Below are positions 7,948 through 14,424 of a stretch of DNA of 64,000 nt, in pieces. Numbering within the stretch: the first letter of the stretch is position 1; every line of letters starts with the position of its first letter. The stretch is taken from the sequence record DRR378314_213; one strand, 5' to 3'. The translations under genes and the position numbers were made by a program. The notes below the pieces were generated by a model, which saw only the letters and a list, made by a program, of their open reading frames with translations, was not told the DNA's origin and did no database searches.

Positions 7948-8730
7948 TTAGATTTCCGGTTCAGCTTGGGTGAGATCAACCCAGATAGGGGTGTGGTCCG
8001 AGGGTCTTTCCTCTCCTCTTGGTCCTTTATCAATGCCGACTTCTGTCAGTAGATCCATGGCTTGGGGGGACAGCAGTAAATGATCGATCCGAATGCCATG
8101 GTCGTTTTGCCAGGCGCCCCGTTGATAATCCCAGTAGGTGTAATTGACATCGGGTGTGAAGCTGCGATAGGCATCGGCATAGCCGAGCCCCAAGAGCTGT
8201 CGAAACCGGTTTCGGCTTTGCGGTTGGGTGAGGGCATCCCCCTCCCAACGGCTGGGATCATAACAGTCTTCGTCCTGGGGAATAACGTTATAGTCCCCGG
8301 CAAGGACTACAGGGGTTTCGGCCGTCAGAAGCGACTTGGCATGACCGATCAGCCGATCCATCCATCCAAGTTTATAGGGAAATTTCTCAGTCTCGATAGG
8401 GTTACCATTTGGCAGGTAAATGGAGGCGATCCGAACCCCCTTTATGGTCGCTTCAATATAGCGGGCCTGCTCATCGGAAGGATCGCCCGGCAGATCGCGC
8501 AAGATATCCTCAATGGGATGTTTGGAGAGGATTGCGACCCCGTTATAGGTTTTCTGACCGAAGGTTTCTACATGATACCCAAGCGCTTCAACCTCTTCGC
8601 GTGGAAAATTCTCATCAATACATTTGAGTTCCTGCAGGCAAAGAACATCGATTTGAGTTTTTTCCAGATAACCGATCAGTCGCGGCAGACGTGCTTTAAC
8701 AGAGTTCACGTTCCAGCTGGCAATTTTCAT
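7948..8730 (-). CDS. xth: Exodeoxyribonuclease III
   Basis: MKIASWNVNS, LQELK, GDYN, GIRIDHLL, SDHTP. Confidence 0.95.
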   Translation of the reverse strand: MKIASWNVNSVKARLPRLIGYLEKTQIDVLCLQELKCIDENFPREEVEALGYHVETFGQKTYNGVAILSKHPIEDILRDLPGDPSDEQARYIEATIKGVRIASIYLPNGNPIETEKFPYKLGWMDRLIGHAKSLLTAETPVVLAGDYNVIPQDEDCYDPSRWEGDALTQPQSRNRFRQLLGLGYADAYRSFTPDVNYTYWDYQRGAWQNDHGIRIDHLLLSPQAMDLLTEVGIDKGPRGEERPSDHTPIWVDLTQAEPEI

Positions 8731-8813: not shown

Positions 8814-9161
8814 TTAGACAGAGAAGGAGGATCCGCAGGAGCAGGAGGCGGTCGCATTGGGATTACGGATCTGAAAAGCGGCGCCAATCAGGTCGTTGAC
8901 ATAATCCACCTCGGAGCCAGCCAGATACAGAAGAGAGACGCTGTCCACCAAAAGCGTCGCGCCGTTATTCTCAACAACCGTGTCATCAGGGTTCTGGGTA
9001 TCCTCCAGATCAAAACTGTATTGAAAGCCGGAGCAGCCGCCGCCATTAACGGCAACGCGCAGCATTTTCTTGTCCGCTTTCATTCCCTGAACAATTGCAT
9101 TAATCCGTTCAGCGGCTGAATCTGTAAGTTTGACAGGTGTTTCCATCATTTCCCGAGCCAT
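8814..9161 (-). CDS. erpA: A-type Fe-S cluster insertion protein
   Basis: GGGCSGFQY and NPNATASCSCGSSF; position next to xth. Confidence 0.9.
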   Translation of the reverse strand: MAREMMETPVKLTDSAAERINAIVQGMKADKKMLRVAVNGGGCSGFQYSFDLEDTQNPDDTVVENNGATLLVDSVSLLYLAGSEVDYVNDLIGAAFQIRNPNATASCSCGSSFSV

Positions 9162-9276
9162 ATTGAATTGCGCCTATAGAGGCGAAATAAGGTTCACTTA
9201 GGATCTTAAGTCCCTATGATGTATTTATCCGAAGGCCTTTTGTCAATTCTTCACCTGTCAGGGAGACCTAACATTA

Positions 9277-10296
9277 ATGTCCGAACACTACTGGACAGAG
9301 ATCCGAAGTTGTTTGAGTACAGCCTTGAAGGCGCAGCTTTCAGGGGAGGATATGCCGAAACTGGAGGCGCTGTCCCGTTTGACGTTGCGCCCTCCCAAAG
9401 ATACCCGGTGGGGGGATCTGTGCACCAATGCGGGTCAGTTGATGCGGGGCGGCAGCTCTGAGGCCTGCCTTTTGGGTCAGGATTTGCTCCTGGGGCAGTT
9501 GCGCGGCCTTGAGGCAGTTAAGGCTGCTCATCTTACCGACAGTGGAGAAATCAATATAACATTGCAAGAGGCGCGGTTGCTTCAGGATGTGCCAAAAATC
9601 ATAACCCAAGGTGAGGCTTATGGCCTAGCCCATCTGAAAGATCATTGTCAGCCGCTCACCCTTGATGTTCCCGATCAGACCCGTGATTTGTTGGCCTTAA
9701 GACAATCCTGGAATGTCATTTATTTAAAAAAACTGGCTGATCTTGTCGGGGTGCAAACCTCAAAAAGCAAGTGGGAGCCTGGAGAAATTCAGGGCTATCC
9801 CACCGAAACAGCACTGGCTAAATGCGGTGAAAGCCGGTTGCGTCTGGCCCTGTTGGGAAATGGAAAAGACTTTGCCGTTCATTTCAGTCCTGTTCTTGCT
9901 GTAGATCAAACGTCTGATAACCCGGCGTTTTCCATCGGCTACGCTCAGTCCAGACTGGCAACCTATCTGAAAGATGGCGTGCCGCTAAGTGATCTGGAAG
10001 CGGGGGCGGCGCTGTCTTCCCCGCTGGAGCGGGAGCTGTTGATTTGCCTTACACAATGGCCGCAGGCCATCCGTATGGCCCTGCGGGATCGGGACATGGT
10101 TAATTTCGTCTCTTTCCTCCAACGGTTAAGCCTGCTATTTTTCCGGCTAAATGATCAGGAACGGCTTCAATCTTCTGATTATCTTCAGGATTCGGAAATG
10201 GGATTCCTGAGGTTGCAAGTGCTTGGAGCCACCAAAACTCTCATTTCAAAGGGATTGGATCTGATGGATATCGAGCAGCCAAAGGAGTTCATTTAG
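9277..10296 (+). CDS. ArgRS-derived protein: N-terminal domain plus DALR anticodon-binding domain, catalytic core missing
   Basis: PPKDTRWGDLCTN and GEINITL..AYG (ArgRS N-domain-like); DNPAFSIGYAQSR and ERELL..LTQWP (DALR-like); no HIGH or KMSK motif; only 339 aa; sits in the argS syntenic position. Confidence 0.75.
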   Translation: MSEHYWTEIRSCLSTALKAQLSGEDMPKLEALSRLTLRPPKDTRWGDLCTNAGQLMRGGSSEACLLGQDLLLGQLRGLEAVKAAHLTDSGEINITLQEARLLQDVPKIITQGEAYGLAHLKDHCQPLTLDVPDQTRDLLALRQSWNVIYLKKLADLVGVQTSKSKWEPGEIQGYPTETALAKCGESRLRLALLGNGKDFAVHFSPVLAVDQTSDNPAFSIGYAQSRLATYLKDGVPLSDLEAGAALSSPLERELLICLTQWPQAIRMALRDRDMVNFVSFLQRLSLLFFRLNDQERLQSSDYLQDSEMGFLRLQVLGATKTLISKGLDLMDIEQPKEFI

Positions 10297-11249
10297 TGAG
10301 TGATAATCACAGTTTTGACGACGATGACGATTTTTTCGAAGATGACTATGTGCCGACGATTAACCGTTGGAAGCTGCTGGGCGCGGCGCTGGCCATTGTG
10401 ATTATCACAGGTTTTGGGATTGGGATCTGGTACGCCTATGATCAAGGCGTCAAACAAGGCGTGCAATTGGCCCCACCGATTATCAAAGCTGATGACACAC
10501 CGGTGAAAGAGCAACCTGAAGATCCGGGCGGGATGGAAATCCCTCATCAGGATAAAAAAGTCTTTAATGTTCTGAACGGGGAAGAGAATACCGAAGAAAA
10601 GGTTGAAAAGTTGATGGAACCACCGGAGGAGGTGGTTGAAGAAGATGCGCCGGTTGACATCAAGGAAGATCCGGCTGCTAAAAAACCAGCGGAAAAAGAA
10701 ACCCTAATGGCCAAAGATGATGCCGTTGAGGCCACAGAAGAGACGGCAGAGACAGCACCAAGCGAAGGTGTGGCGGGGACAGAAGCGGCTAGCGAGAGCA
10801 AGCCACTTGAAAAGATGGCCGAAAAACCGGGTGAAGAGACCGCTGAAGTTGCAAAGGATGTTGCGGACGCAGAAGAGAAAGTCACTGAGGCCGTTGAAGC
10901 TGAAAGCGAAGAGGAAACTGCACCGCCAGCGCCTGAAAAAGTGCCTGCGGTTGACGCCGGCAAAAAACCTGAGGTGGCCGCTAAAGAAGCGCCTGCCGGG
11001 ATCGCGTTTCGGGTGCAACTGGGGGCCTTTCGATCCGAAGATGCCGCAAAGAAAGCCTGGCGGGATCTGCAAAAGAAACATGAGGAGCTTCTTTCTGGTG
11101 AGGTTTATAAAATCCAGAGTGCCGAAGTTACGGGCAAAGGTTTATTCTTCCGACTTCAAGCAGGTGCCTTTGACGATCGGTCGCAAGCTGCGGACCTGTG
11201 CAATCAGCTAAAGGCCCGTAAACAGGACTGCCTCATTGCCAAGAACTGA
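10296..11249 (+). CDS. SPOR domain cell-division protein (FtsN-like)
   Basis: Single TM helix, acidic low-complexity linker, C-term FRVQLGAFRSEDAAKKAW...FFRLQAG...LCNQLK..QDC. Confidence 0.9.
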   Translation: MSDNHSFDDDDDFFEDDYVPTINRWKLLGAALAIVIITGFGIGIWYAYDQGVKQGVQLAPPIIKADDTPVKEQPEDPGGMEIPHQDKKVFNVLNGEENTEEKVEKLMEPPEEVVEEDAPVDIKEDPAAKKPAEKETLMAKDDAVEATEETAETAPSEGVAGTEAASESKPLEKMAEKPGEETAEVAKDVADAEEKVTEAVEAESEEETAPPAPEKVPAVDAGKKPEVAAKEAPAGIAFRVQLGAFRSEDAAKKAWRDLQKKHEELLSGEVYKIQSAEVTGKGLFFRLQAGAFDDRSQAADLCNQLKARKQDCLIAKN

Positions 11250-12288
11250 TTATGAGGGTGTTCGGTCTGTTATTTTCTCTTTGGAGGGACCAGACTTAAC
11301 AGCCGAGGAGCGGGCGTTTTTCAAGGCCGAAAAACCGTTTGGTTTTATTCTCTTCGCCCGAAATGTGTTGGACCCATCGCAGCTTAGGAGGCTAACGGGT
11401 GAGTTGCGCGAATGTGTTGGCCGTCCAACAGCCCCAATCCTTGTGGATCAGGAAGGTGGCCGGGTGCAGCGTCTGCGGGCACCAAACTGGTTTACCGCGC
11501 CCGCCTTTGGGCAGATCGCTGCGCTCCATGCCCGGGATGGACAAGCCGGATTGCGCGCTGCTGAACTGGCCACCCTGTTGATCGCCCGGGACTTGCGGGA
11601 TACAGGGTTTTCGGTGAATTGCAGCCCTTGTCTGGATTTGAAGCGGGCTGAGACATCTTCGGTGATCGGCGATCGCGCCTTCGGGGCGTCGACAGATGAT
11701 GTTATCCAACTCGGCCAGAAAGTGGTGGAAACTTATCTGCGGGCGGGGATCCAGCCAGTGATCAAGCATATGCCAGGGCACGGGCGCGGAACCGTGGACA
11801 GTCATCATGAACTTCCCATTGTGACAGCTTCGCTTGAAACCTTGCGCCGTTCAGATTTTATCCCCTTTAAAGCATTGAATGACTGTGCCTGGGGGATGAC
11901 AGCCCATATCGTTTTTGAGACCCTTGATCCGCATCGTCCGGCCACCCAATCGTCAAAGATCATTCAAGAGGTGATCCGGGGTGAGATAGGCTTTGAGGGT
12001 CTTTTGCTGACCGATGACCTGAATATGCAGGCGCTGGAGGGAAATCTTCCGGATCGGGCGGCGCGATCCCTCTCTGCCGGGGTGGATATTGTTTTGCATT
12101 GTTCGGGCAAATTGGATGAAATGAAATCCGTTGCCCCAGCCTGTGCGGCACTTGGCGTGGATACCCTTGATCGGATCGAGCGGTGGGAGCAGGGCATGCA
12201 GGTGTCTTCGCGGCAACAGGATGATATGGTGGATCCGGCGATATTGCGCCAGGAATTGGAAAATCTGCTCGCGCAGGGTGAGGGATAA
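11236..12288 (+). CDS. nagZ: Beta-N-acetylhexosaminidase (GH3)
   Basis: DQEGGRVQR, KHMPGHG...DSH, TDDLNM. Confidence 0.93.
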   Translation: MPRTDYEGVRSVIFSLEGPDLTAEERAFFKAEKPFGFILFARNVLDPSQLRRLTGELRECVGRPTAPILVDQEGGRVQRLRAPNWFTAPAFGQIAALHARDGQAGLRAAELATLLIARDLRDTGFSVNCSPCLDLKRAETSSVIGDRAFGASTDDVIQLGQKVVETYLRAGIQPVIKHMPGHGRGTVDSHHELPIVTASLETLRRSDFIPFKALNDCAWGMTAHIVFETLDPHRPATQSSKIIQEVIRGEIGFEGLLLTDDLNMQALEGNLPDRAARSLSAGVDIVLHCSGKLDEMKSVAPACAALGVDTLDRIERWEQGMQVSSRQQDDMVDPAILRQELENLLAQGEG

Positions 12289-12977
12289 TGGAAAATCTGT
12301 CCGACATCATCTGGGCCGCATCGACCTGGATACTTCCGGCGTTGCTGGCAATAACCCTGCATGAGGCGGGACATGCCTTTGCGGCCTGGAAATTTGGCGA
12401 TCCAACGGCAAAAAATCAGGGTCGGGTGACTTTAAATCCCCTGAAACATATTGATCCGATGGGAACACTTATCCTGCCAGCGGTTCTACTGCTTTTGAAA
12501 GCGCCGTTTTTGTTTGGCTATGCAAAGCCGGTCCCGGTGAATTTTGGCCGCTTGAGAAACCCCAAGCGGGACATGATCTGGGTGGCGCTTGCGGGACCCG
12601 GCATGAATTTTCTGCTCGCCTATATTTGTGCCATCGGTATTCATGGGTTGGTGTTGTTCCCTGAATTGGCCAGCAACTGGCTCCTGGCCAATCTGGCGAA
12701 CGGTTTGCTGTTAAATGTGGTTCTGGGTGTCTTTAATCTGTTGCCCATACCGCCGCTGGATGGGGGTAAGGTTGCTGTCGGGATTTTGCCGAACGCGCTG
12801 GCTATTCCGTTGATGAAACTGGAACGCTTTGGTTTTCTGATCCTGATCGGAGTGATTTTTATTTTACCGATGATCAGCCGGGCTATGGGGTATGAGCTGA
12901 ACCTGTTGCGATGGGTTCATGATGGCCCGATCAGCTTTGTTATATCGCTAATTGCCAAGACAGTGGGTCTCCCCTAA
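12288..12977 (+). CDS. Site-2 protease (M50) family protein
   Basis: HEAGH, ALAGP, NLLPIPPLDGG. Confidence 0.92.
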   Translation: MENLSDIIWAASTWILPALLAITLHEAGHAFAAWKFGDPTAKNQGRVTLNPLKHIDPMGTLILPAVLLLLKAPFLFGYAKPVPVNFGRLRNPKRDMIWVALAGPGMNFLLAYICAIGIHGLVLFPELASNWLLANLANGLLLNVVLGVFNLLPIPPLDGGKVAVGILPNALAIPLMKLERFGFLILIGVIFILPMISRAMGYELNLLRWVHDGPISFVISLIAKTVGLP

Positions 12978-12985
12978 ACTTTCCC

Positions 12986-13825
12986 ATGGGAAAACAGGGG
13001 AGCAGCAAAGCGGTGGAAAAGTCCAAAGGCCTTTTCGAAAAATCCGATAATTTTGAGCAGGATGAACGTCCGGTTGTCTCTGAGCATGCGCTGTTGGTCG
13101 ATCTGGATGGCTTTGAAGGACCGCTTGATATCCTGTTGGCGCTGGCGCGGGATCAGAAGGTGGATTTATTAAAAATTTCCATTCTGCAACTGGCCGAACA
13201 GTATCTTGCCTTCATTGAAGAAGCACGCAAATTACGCCTTGAAATCGCCGCGGATTATCTGGTCATGGCGGCCTGGTTGGCGTTTCTGAAATCCCGCTTG
13301 TTATTGCCACCGGAAGACATAGAAGAGGGTCTGTCTGGCCAGGAAATGGCGGAACGGCTGGCCTTTCAGCTTAAAAAGCTGGAGGCTATGCGCAAAGCGG
13401 CCGAACAGCTGACAAATGGGATGATGACTGGGCGGGATCGCCTGCGCCGGGGGCGTCCAGAGGGTGTGAAAGTTATTCGGCATTCCAAGTATGATTGCAG
13501 CCTTCGTGAATTGCTGCAGGCCTACGCCCAGCATCAGGAACGCAAGGGGATTAGAAACCCCCTCCGTCTGATGCGAGAGGCGGTTTTTTCCGTTGAGGCG
13601 GCATTGGAGCGGCTTGAAAATATGTTGGGCAAGATGCCGGACTGGATGGATCTTTGGGCTTATCTGCCGGATAATCTGAAAGATCCCTTTACTCGGCGAT
13701 CCGCGGAGGCGTCAACATTGTTGGCAAGTCTGCAACTTGTTAAAGAAGGGGAAATGGAACTTCGTCAGTCGACAACATTTGGTCCCATCGAAGTCCGCGC
13801 CCATACCCGCAAGGAGGATGAATGA
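12986..13825 (+). CDS. scpA: Segregation and condensation protein A
   Basis: FEGPLDILLAL, AADYLVMAAWL, Q..FGPI. Confidence 0.93.
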   Translation: MGKQGSSKAVEKSKGLFEKSDNFEQDERPVVSEHALLVDLDGFEGPLDILLALARDQKVDLLKISILQLAEQYLAFIEEARKLRLEIAADYLVMAAWLAFLKSRLLLPPEDIEEGLSGQEMAERLAFQLKKLEAMRKAAEQLTNGMMTGRDRLRRGRPEGVKVIRHSKYDCSLRELLQAYAQHQERKGIRNPLRLMREAVFSVEAALERLENMLGKMPDWMDLWAYLPDNLKDPFTRRSAEASTLLASLQLVKEGEMELRQSTTFGPIEVRAHTRKEDE

Positions 13826-14424
13826 GTGTCAATCCAGAACATGTTCGGATGGTGGAGGCTCTGTTATTTGCGGCAAAAGAGCCTTTGGATGAGGTCTCCC
13901 TTGCTGCGCGTCTGCCGGACGATGCGGAAATTCCAGAGATTCTGAAGTTTTTGGCCAAAGCCTATGAGCATAAAGGGGTGAATTTGACCCAGCTTGCGGG
14001 CAAGTGGACCTTTTTGACAGCCCCGGATCTTGCCTGGTTATTACAGGATGAAAAAGAAACTGAACGCAAGCTCAGCCGCGCCGGTTTGGAAACTTTGGCA
14101 ATTATTGCTTATCATCAACCTATCACCCGGGCCGAGATTGAGGAAATTAGAGGGGTTGGCCTGAGCCGTGGGGTTATGGATATTTTGTTTGATGCGGGCT
14201 GGATCCGCCCAAGGGGCCGAAGGCGAACCCCGGGCCGTCCGGTTACCTATGGCACGACAGAAGAGTTTTTGATCCATTTCGGTCTTGATGATGTGCGCGA
14301 TCTTCCCGGTTTTGATGAGATGAAGGCAAGTGGGCTTTTGAATATGGACCCATCCGGGCTTTTTGATGATATCCCGGGCACCGATGCGGCAACCCCGCTG
14401 GATCCAGAAGAGGAAGAGGATTAA
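13822..14424 (+). CDS. scpB: Segregation and condensation protein B
   Basis: EALLFA, LETLAIIAYHQPITRAEIEEIRGV, PGRPVTYGTT. Confidence 0.95.
   Translation: MSVNPEHVRMVEALLFAAKEPLDEVSLAARLPDDAEIPEILKFLAKAYEHKGVNLTQLAGKWTFLTAPDLAWLLQDEKETERKLSRAGLETLAIIAYHQPITRAEIEEIRGVGLSRGVMDILFDAGWIRPRGRRRTPGRPVTYGTTEEFLIHFGLDDVRDLPGFDEMKASGLLNMDPSGLFDDIPGTDAATPLDPEEEED

Follow-up and report, generated by a model that had tools for sequence, protein, structure and literature searches.

A retained, apparently non-catalytic derivative of arginyl-tRNA synthetase in the argS slot of Sneathiellales

HisZ, GluQRS/YadB and Trbp111 are stand-alone proteins derived from aminoacyl-tRNA synthetases, in which a displaced or duplicated synthetase gene has been reused for a role other than charging tRNA. 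Closer to arginyl-tRNA synthetase (ArgRS) is NrtL (NF045898, 'ArgS-related anticodon-binding protein'), a family of about 330-345 amino acids (aa) that has the ArgRS N-domain and the DALR domain with no catalytic core, the same arrangement as in the protein described here. Our search of the literature found no paper on NrtL, although one outside the searched library may exist. Human DALRD3 is described in PMC7237682 as the tRNA-Arg adaptor of the METTL2 3-methylcytidine (m3C) methyltransferase. Here we analyse a gene on a 64,000-nucleotide (nt) stretch of sequence record DRR378314_213, the whole of which is called the window below. The gene encodes a 339-aa protein and lies in the slot of argS, the gene for ArgRS. 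We put the probability at roughly 95% that this gene, referred to as the remnant, is a selected, non-catalytic derivative of the native alphaproteobacterial argS that arose in situ.

Anatomy of the gene in the argS slot

An earlier note on this DNA had described an uninterrupted open reading frame (ORF), and this is what we found: the ORF occupies 9277..10296 (+), runs from ATG to TAG and encodes 339 aa with no internal stops. The ATG start is supported because orthologues share a conserved N-terminus, MSExYW, and the spacing of 11 nt from the GGAG ribosome-binding site is slightly long but still usable and therefore acceptable. The overlap of stop and start that had been claimed is also present, as the TAG at 10294-10296 and the GTG at 10296-10298 of a 317-aa SPOR-domain ORF have one G in common. 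In 23 Sneathiellales loci this junction measures -1 nt (14 loci), 0 nt (seven) or +3/+5 nt (two), and in 21 of the 23 the remnant still overlaps the SPOR start by 1 nt or adjoins it directly. The remnant keeps its translational coupling to the SPOR-domain gene of the cell envelope that follows it, as expected from the ancestral position of argS.

The position of the gene was compared with the argS slot of 19 other alphaproteobacterial genomes, chosen solely for contig room downstream. The SPOR gene follows full-length argS directly on the 3' side in 19/19, in agreement with the synteny that had been proposed, and nagZ (17/19), scpA (18/19) and scpB (17/19) lie further downstream, one locus being at a contig end. 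All 23 Sneathiellales loci have the order erpA, short gene, SPOR, nagZ, M50 peptidase, scpA, scpB; upstream, erpA is present in 23/23 and xth in 16/23, the latter count being limited by locus ends. Because the neighbour order is the same as at the full-length argS loci, the short gene occupies the argS slot.

All the motifs quoted in the earlier note were located in the protein, with PPKDTRWGDLCTN at residues 39-51, SGEINI at 89-94, AYG at 114-116, CGESRLRLALL at 183-193 and DNPAFSIGYAQSR at 214-226. The first of these is a degenerate form of the 'P..HGD..TN' motif of the ArgRS N-domain, which also carries the invariant Asn93 of the 'GFIN' motif, while the C-terminal part contains FSPVLAVD..DNPAF..YA..R, SLLFFRL and QSSDYL. 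When the protein was searched as a single sequence, Pfam DALR_1 (PF05746) matched at 31 bits against a cut-off of 22.3, with residues 222-337 aligned to positions 3-116 of 117, and TIGR00456 (argS, EC 6.1.1.19) matched only the C-terminal part (183-336 against 416-567 of 569) at 36.3 bits, with a cut-off of 261.65. The match to NF045898 extends over a single stretch (30-336 against 26-325 of 327; 57.3 bits, cut-off 340), whereas ordinary ArgRS match that model in two pieces. Neither Arg_tRNA_synt_N nor tRNA-synt_1d (PF00750) gave a Pfam match at E<=1 with the single sequence, and a single-sequence search of PDB returned nothing at E<=1. The N-domain (PF03485) was detected through the family profile and the structure only, which we counted as detection, and PF03485 is precomputed on six of 15 short relatives.

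A family profile of 14 members was searched against 1.84 billion representatives and recovered 22 short clusters at 50% identity (191-348 aa, at least 203 bits), followed by full-length ArgRS at 133 bits or less. The full-length enzymes were matched in two pieces, positions 1-164 of the profile corresponding to ArgRS 1-166 and positions ~176-346 to the last ~165 residues, and 12 of the 12 PDB sequences matched by the profile were ArgRS. The median isoelectric point of the short family (5.15) also resembles that of real ArgRS (5.4).

The AlphaFold2 model of the protein has a pLDDT of 90.6 and a pTM of 0.89, and all 20 Foldseek matches at E<=0.001 were ArgRS. Superposition on the tRNA-bound E. 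coli ArgRS (5b63_C, VIA-align), one of the checks proposed beforehand, gave Z 20.9 and a root-mean-square deviation of 3.7 A over 315 of 339 residues, spanning 1-577 of the chain. The best 15 structural entries were all ArgRS (Z 17.0-20.9) and were followed by LeuRS (Z 12.3), which aligned only from about residue 120. The alignment with ArgRS begins at residue 1-3. The N-terminal and anticodon-binding domains are thus predicted to sit in the relative geometry of the native enzyme. Homology to ArgRS and to its DALR domain is therefore present at the level of both profile and fold.

What was lost was defined on a reference alignment of 19 native-type alphaproteobacterial ArgRS, in which 175 columns are conserved at 90% or more. 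The remnant keeps ArgRS 1 to ~165, comprising the N-domain, the first Rossmann strand, the HIGH loop, a helix and the second strand, and it resumes at about ArgRS residue 410, just past the KMSK loop. The deleted part takes with it the KMSK segment, 65 of the 175 conserved columns and ~240 residues of the catalytic core. The junction where these residues are gone falls in residues 121-175, in which DSSP of the model assigns a strand (127-131), a helix (138-157) and a second strand (161-165), with no His at the HIGH position; none of the 29 short proteins has the HIGH histidine (reference position 141 of the native type). The absence of the catalytic core that had been read from the sequence was thus borne out by the failure of PF00750 to match, the loss of the HIGH histidine and the deletion of the KMSK segment. 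From this anatomy, the remnant is predicted to be unable to bind ATP or arginine or to charge tRNA, and therefore cannot be an aminoacyl-tRNA synthetase.

Among the 110 retained columns, 24 have the native residue in at least 80% of the 29-member family, including P40, G46, D47, N51, G90, N93, N215, P216, F218, Y222, A223 and R312. N93 is invariant, N215, P216, F218, Y222 and A223 are present in 86-100% of the family and R226 in 66%. The 29 proteins are 27-62% identical to the window protein and share nine invariant and 25 nearly invariant residues, the invariant ones including N93, C183, F203, S204, P216, F218 and E251. Only two cysteines are conserved in the family, C183 (100%) and C49 (72%); a metal or redox site at these positions was considered and dropped.

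The replacement enzyme, descent and selection

The nearest relatives of the window protein are from Sneathiella species, S. limimaris being the closest at 62% identity. The earlier note had supposed that a second argS lies elsewhere in the genome, and in these relatives a complete ArgRS is encoded at an unrelated locus, where its neighbours are genes for a chaperonin-like protein and an ECF sigma factor; it has 589 aa with N, catalytic and DALR domains. In S. limimaris the full ArgRS and the short gene are on one 2.84-Mb contig, ~1.15 Mb apart. A tblastn search of the 64-kb window with both ArgRS types found the remnant alone and no full argS.

Where BLAST aligns it over the full length, the Sneathiella enzyme shares only 20-24% identity with the 19 native-type enzymes, and its best PDB match is the E. 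coli ArgRS (385 bits), whereas the closest solved structure to the native type is that of C. jejuni (3fnr). Outside Sneathiellales its nearest relatives are also alphaproteobacterial, in Oceanibacterium (58%), Inquilinus (56-57%) and Dongiaceae. Of the 201 alphaproteobacteria sampled, 28 have this E. coli type, the identity to the Sneathiella enzyme being 39-100%; the sample includes one unpublished genome (G042). We also observed that Alphaproteobacteria have two deeply divergent ArgRS types, ~22% identical to each other, of which the native, KMSK-bearing one lies beside SPOR and the E. coli-like one elsewhere, for example at L042:7660-9426 (G001).

The remnant itself belongs with the native type. 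All 29 members of the short family scored 45-117 bits on a native-type hidden Markov model (HMM) and no more than 22 bits on an E. coli-type HMM, and the motifs DNPxF..YA.AR and WP are common to the short family and the native type only. With the working enzyme of the E. coli type and the remnant of the native type in 29/29, the displacement that had been proposed is strengthened by these data. Our reading is that, in Sneathiellales, an E. coli-type ArgRS encoded elsewhere has taken over aminoacylation, and that the native argS has lost ~240 core residues in frame, from just past the second Rossmann strand to just past the KMSK loop, as well as the HIGH histidines.

The remnant has been kept under selection. 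Exactly one copy with no internal stops is present in 35 of 39 species-level Sneathiellales genomes. Two of the four misses (G215, G219) are small fragmented assemblies with contigs ending inside the cluster, a third (G218) is a small assembly of 1.9 Mb in which scpA was also not found, and in the fourth (G203) the slot is filled by a homologue of ~310 aa that has diverged from the family (hhalign probability 98.6%, E 1e-15). Pairwise dN/dS at dS<1 was 0.13, 0.20, 0.22, 0.29, 0.33 and 0.35, compared with 0.00-0.14 for neighbouring genes, and the tree-wide omega from a codon model was 0.187 for the remnant, 0.097 for nagZ and 0.056 for scpA. The C-terminal domain had the lowest dN of the three regions in all seven pairs compared, and the product is 337-349 aa long in 22 of 23 Sneathiellales loci. 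Decay of the orthologues, or a dN/dS near 1, would have spoken against a retained gene, and neither was seen (35/39 intact, omega 0.19). The remnant is under purifying selection, looser than that on its neighbours. Of the suggestion in the earlier note that the gene was retained for a new function, the retention is therefore well founded in the selection and the 35/39 intact copies; the role of tRNA-binding adaptor or regulator we infer.

Several observations weigh against descent from argS in the form described, or against a retained tRNA-related role. The second argS of the window organism is one that we infer from its relatives. In a maximum-likelihood tree of the N and C columns, computed by a quick method (68 rows, with 16 of the 29 short rows in and 13 left out for speed), the short family forms one clade (Shimodaira-Hasegawa-like approximate likelihood ratio test, SH-aLRT, 100), but the tree leaves this clade unplaced, as a long stem on an unresolved backbone. 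Descent from the native alphaproteobacterial clade is compatible with this tree but not demonstrated by it, and we therefore relied on synteny and the HMM scores. Other lineages with the E. coli-type enzyme dispense with a remnant altogether. No more than the 24 of 110 retained columns mentioned above are native in 80% or more of the family; several basic or aromatic residues that are invariant in the native type have changed in the anticodon-binding half (R428 to N, R519 to Y/N, H532 to F, W535 to V/N and R545 to D), and C183, S204, F289 and R38 are new invariants of the short family. Because of these replacements and new invariants, specificity may have moved off tRNA-Arg, or to a partner that is not RNA. 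The remnant also changes at two to three times the rate of its neighbours, with 47-48% identity against 63-85% for the same genome pairs.

Some assemblies showed irregularities at these loci. In the draft of S. glossodoripedis (L002, L004/L005) the E. coli-type argS is split into frames of 447 aa and 152 aa, nagZ appears in two tblastn pieces and ~38 codons are missing, in frame, from the start of the short gene; frameshift errors in the draft assembly are a more probable cause than biology. In another genome (G124; L076, C6:853000-862000) the native-type argS and scpA are each in three frames, which could reflect either a low-quality assembly or real decay. A further short ArgRS-like protein, P0120 (338 aa, from a Logan contig of 4584 bases), is much closer to native ArgRS; the native-type HMM gave it 227 bits and the NrtL model 149 bits, and it fell outside the Sneathiellales family in the tree.

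Possible functions of the remnant

In structures of the T. thermophilus and yeast ArgRS, the Asn of the GFIN motif in the N-domain reportedly contacts A20. According to PMC9976931, arginine identity in bacteria depends on A20 of the D-loop together with C35 and U/G36 of the anticodon. In the remnant, the modules that read the D-loop (A20) and the anticodon (C35, U/G36) would be held in their native relative geometry, and because of this we propose that the remnant might clamp tRNA-Arg, or a tRNA-like RNA, without charging it. The clamped tRNA could then be sequestered, protected or presented to a partner, as DALRD3 does for METTL2. We lean, by no great measure, towards a stand-alone reader of tRNA-Arg that binds the tRNA without charging it.

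Perhaps the remnant instead assists or regulates the E. coli-type ArgRS or arginine metabolism, for example by competing for uncharged tRNA-Arg and so tuning charging or the stringent response. It would then still bind tRNA, but would act on the charging system and not on a pathway of modification or protection. The same structural evidence that suggests a tRNA reader would fit such a role, and the remnant was counted as co-occurring with the E. coli-type ArgRS in all Sneathiellales checked (G001, G002, G045, G203, G215, G218). The replacement enzyme, however, has complete N, catalytic and DALR domains and so has no missing part to be complemented, ArgRS is monomeric, and the five other carriers of the E. 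coli type examined have no remnant. These carriers are five large non-Sneathiellales genomes (G044, G198, G015, G006, G112) in which no homologue of the short family was found at E<=1e-3. Their slot reads xth, erpA, an HD-domain dGTPase-like gene, SPOR, nagZ, scpA and scpB, with the argS remnant gone. Since 5/5 have deleted the native argS cleanly, a remnant is not needed merely to fill the slot, and we regard the assisting role as improbable.

We hold it just as improbable that the ancestral ArgRS had a moonlighting, protein-binding role tied to the SPOR/cell-envelope cluster that the remnant continues by a route other than tRNA, for instance if it docked on the SPOR protein at its acidic cytoplasmic tail. 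It is true that argS adjoins SPOR in all 19 of the other alphaproteobacteria and that the junction is kept in 21 of 23 Sneathiellales loci, and the many replaced residues on the native tRNA side, together with the new invariants, would be in keeping with a partner of this kind. However, the five lineages without native argS keep SPOR-nagZ-scpAB, now beside the dGTPase-like gene, and therefore the cluster needs no ArgRS-like partner; moreover, the most conserved parts of the remnant are the tRNA-recognition motifs of ArgRS.

A still smaller chance attaches to the ORF being a translated leader only, whose function would be to deliver ribosomes to the coupled SPOR gene or to house its promoter, the protein being functionless. 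The conserved overlapping or abutting stop and start would be expected of a leader, and the remnant is the fastest-evolving gene of the cluster, but a leader would need neither an omega of 0.19 nor invariant residues, a constant length and a confident, compact fold. A decaying pseudogene or an assembly artefact, to which the loss of the catalytic core and the detection of the DALR domain alone by single-sequence Pfam might point, is ruled out by the 35/39 stop-free genomes, an omega well below 1 and 22 clusters from independent assemblies.

The tRNA-Arg reader gains a possible parallel from a second order. One genome with the E. coli-type enzyme (G054) has a 248-aa ORF in the argS slot (L075:5037-5780 (-)), between the dGTPase-like and SPOR genes, which scored 30.1 bits on Arg_tRNA_synt_N and 27.2 bits on DALR_1, is 38% identical to the native N-domain and has deletion end-points different from those in Sneathiellales. 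A member of the same order (G240) has a 52%-identical copy (C2:266377-267111), and a third genome of that order (G239) has retained a full-length native-type argS. This remnant is independent of that in Sneathiellales, and therefore the same outcome arose at least twice. In G239 we also noticed a second argS-like locus split over three frames (C295 and C33), which could be a transitional state, errors of a metagenome-assembled genome or contamination.

It is conceivable, although we would not expect it, that a displaced native argS has been exapted repeatedly into a reader of tRNA-Arg, a bacterial counterpart of DALRD3, in Sneathiellales and in G054/G240, with NrtL as a further parallel. If this is true, tRNA-Arg might be handed to a partner such as a modification enzyme, an arginyl-transfer reaction or protection from an anticodon nuclease, or alternatively the status of tRNA-Arg might be linked to the co-translated SPOR/cell-division cluster.

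These loci are an unusually clean natural experiment on the fate of an essential synthetase gene after its replacement by a foreign type. The old argS has gone in five lineages, while both tRNA-recognition modules have been kept under purifying selection in Sneathiellales and, independently, in one small order. This argues that in bacteria, as with DALRD3 in mammals, an ArgRS-derived 'reader' that has no catalytic site serves a function on which selection can act, and Sneathiella species offer culturable, non-pathogenic marine hosts in which that function could be found. In genome annotation, it would be a mistake to take a 'DALR anticodon-binding domain-containing protein' at the argS position for the ArgRS of the genome.

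Neighbouring features and comparison with known systems

The features of the locus are collected in Table 1. No tRNA genes were found in the 64-kb window. Among sequencing runs, none of RNA was listed for it, and one DNA metagenome run had a small share of words (0.09). In other alphaproteobacteria an HD/HD_assoc dGTPase-like gene lies between erpA and argS/SPOR; neither the window (interval 9162-9276) nor any of the 23 Sneathiellales loci searched has this gene in that place. Ahead of the membrane helix, the SPOR protein starts (window 10296-10400) with DDDDDFFEDDY, a strongly acidic stretch on the cytoplasmic side, and the idea that this tail might dock on a nucleic-acid-binding surface is pure speculation.

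Table 1. Positions of the remnant, its parts and its neighbours in the window
Feature	Coordinates	Strand	Basis
Non-catalytic ArgRS-derived gene, 339 aa	9277..10296	+	ORF, DALR_1 and NF045898 matches, order-wide family
Ribosome-binding site GGAG	9262-9265	+	Read from sequence; 11 nt before ATG
ArgRS N-terminal (Add1-like) domain, residues 1-120	9277..9636	+	Profile match to ArgRS 1-166; structural alignment
Rossmann-fold stub and short linker, residues 121-175	9637..9801	+	Model DSSP; alignment with native-type ArgRS
Post-KMSK segment and DALR anticodon-binding helical domain, residues 176-339	9802..10293	+	Pfam DALR_1, TIGR00456 416-567
SPOR-domain membrane protein gene	10296..11249	+	Pfam SPOR 57.6 bits; GTG overlaps remnant TAG by 1 nt
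nagZ-like glycoside hydrolase family 3 gene	11236..12288	+	Pfam Glyco_hydro_3 170.9 bits
Peptidase M50-family membrane protein gene	12288..12977	+	Pfam Peptidase_M50 47.4 bits
scpA	12986-13825	+	Pfam SMC_ScpA
scpB	13822-14424	+	Pfam SMC_ScpB
Exonuclease III-like gene (xth), divergent upstream	7948-8730	-	Pfam Exo_endo_phos
erpA-like Fe-S carrier gene, divergent upstream	8814-9161	-	Pfam Fe-S_biosyn

With the native-type ArgRS the remnant shares its slot, its N and C domains and their geometry, and the motifs P..GD..TN, G.IN, DNPxF..YA.AR and WP; it differs in being without ~240 residues of the Rossmann core, the HIGH histidines and the KMSK loop, and in evolving much faster. HisZ and GluQRS retain the catalytic fold and derive from other synthetases, whereas the remnant retains the tRNA-recognition parts only.

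The nearest clusters in the ESM Atlas are large ones of mainly Actinomycetota proteins with N and DALR domains (scores 0.94-0.95), one of which is named NrtL. The relatives of the remnant reached 63-79 bits on NF045898, all far under its cut-off of 340 bits, and the same model scores the N-domains of ordinary ArgRS at up to 107.8 bits, above the 57.3 bits of the window protein; none of the 201 alphaproteobacteria sampled reached the cut-off. Both the synteny and the HMM scores favour an origin independent of the actinobacterial NrtL, probably in situ from the alphaproteobacterial argS.

DALRD3 is likewise non-catalytic and built on the DALR domain of ArgRS, and the Atlas feature score to its cluster is 0.90. 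It is, however, eukaryotic, has ~500 aa and an N-terminal region of its own (PF26758, in 66% of its Atlas cluster), and its descent is independent; PF26758 gave no Pfam match at E<=1 in the window protein. The architecture is therefore already known, from NrtL and from DALRD3 as a eukaryotic analogue, and the remnant is an independent, order-wide family with a second, convergent case.

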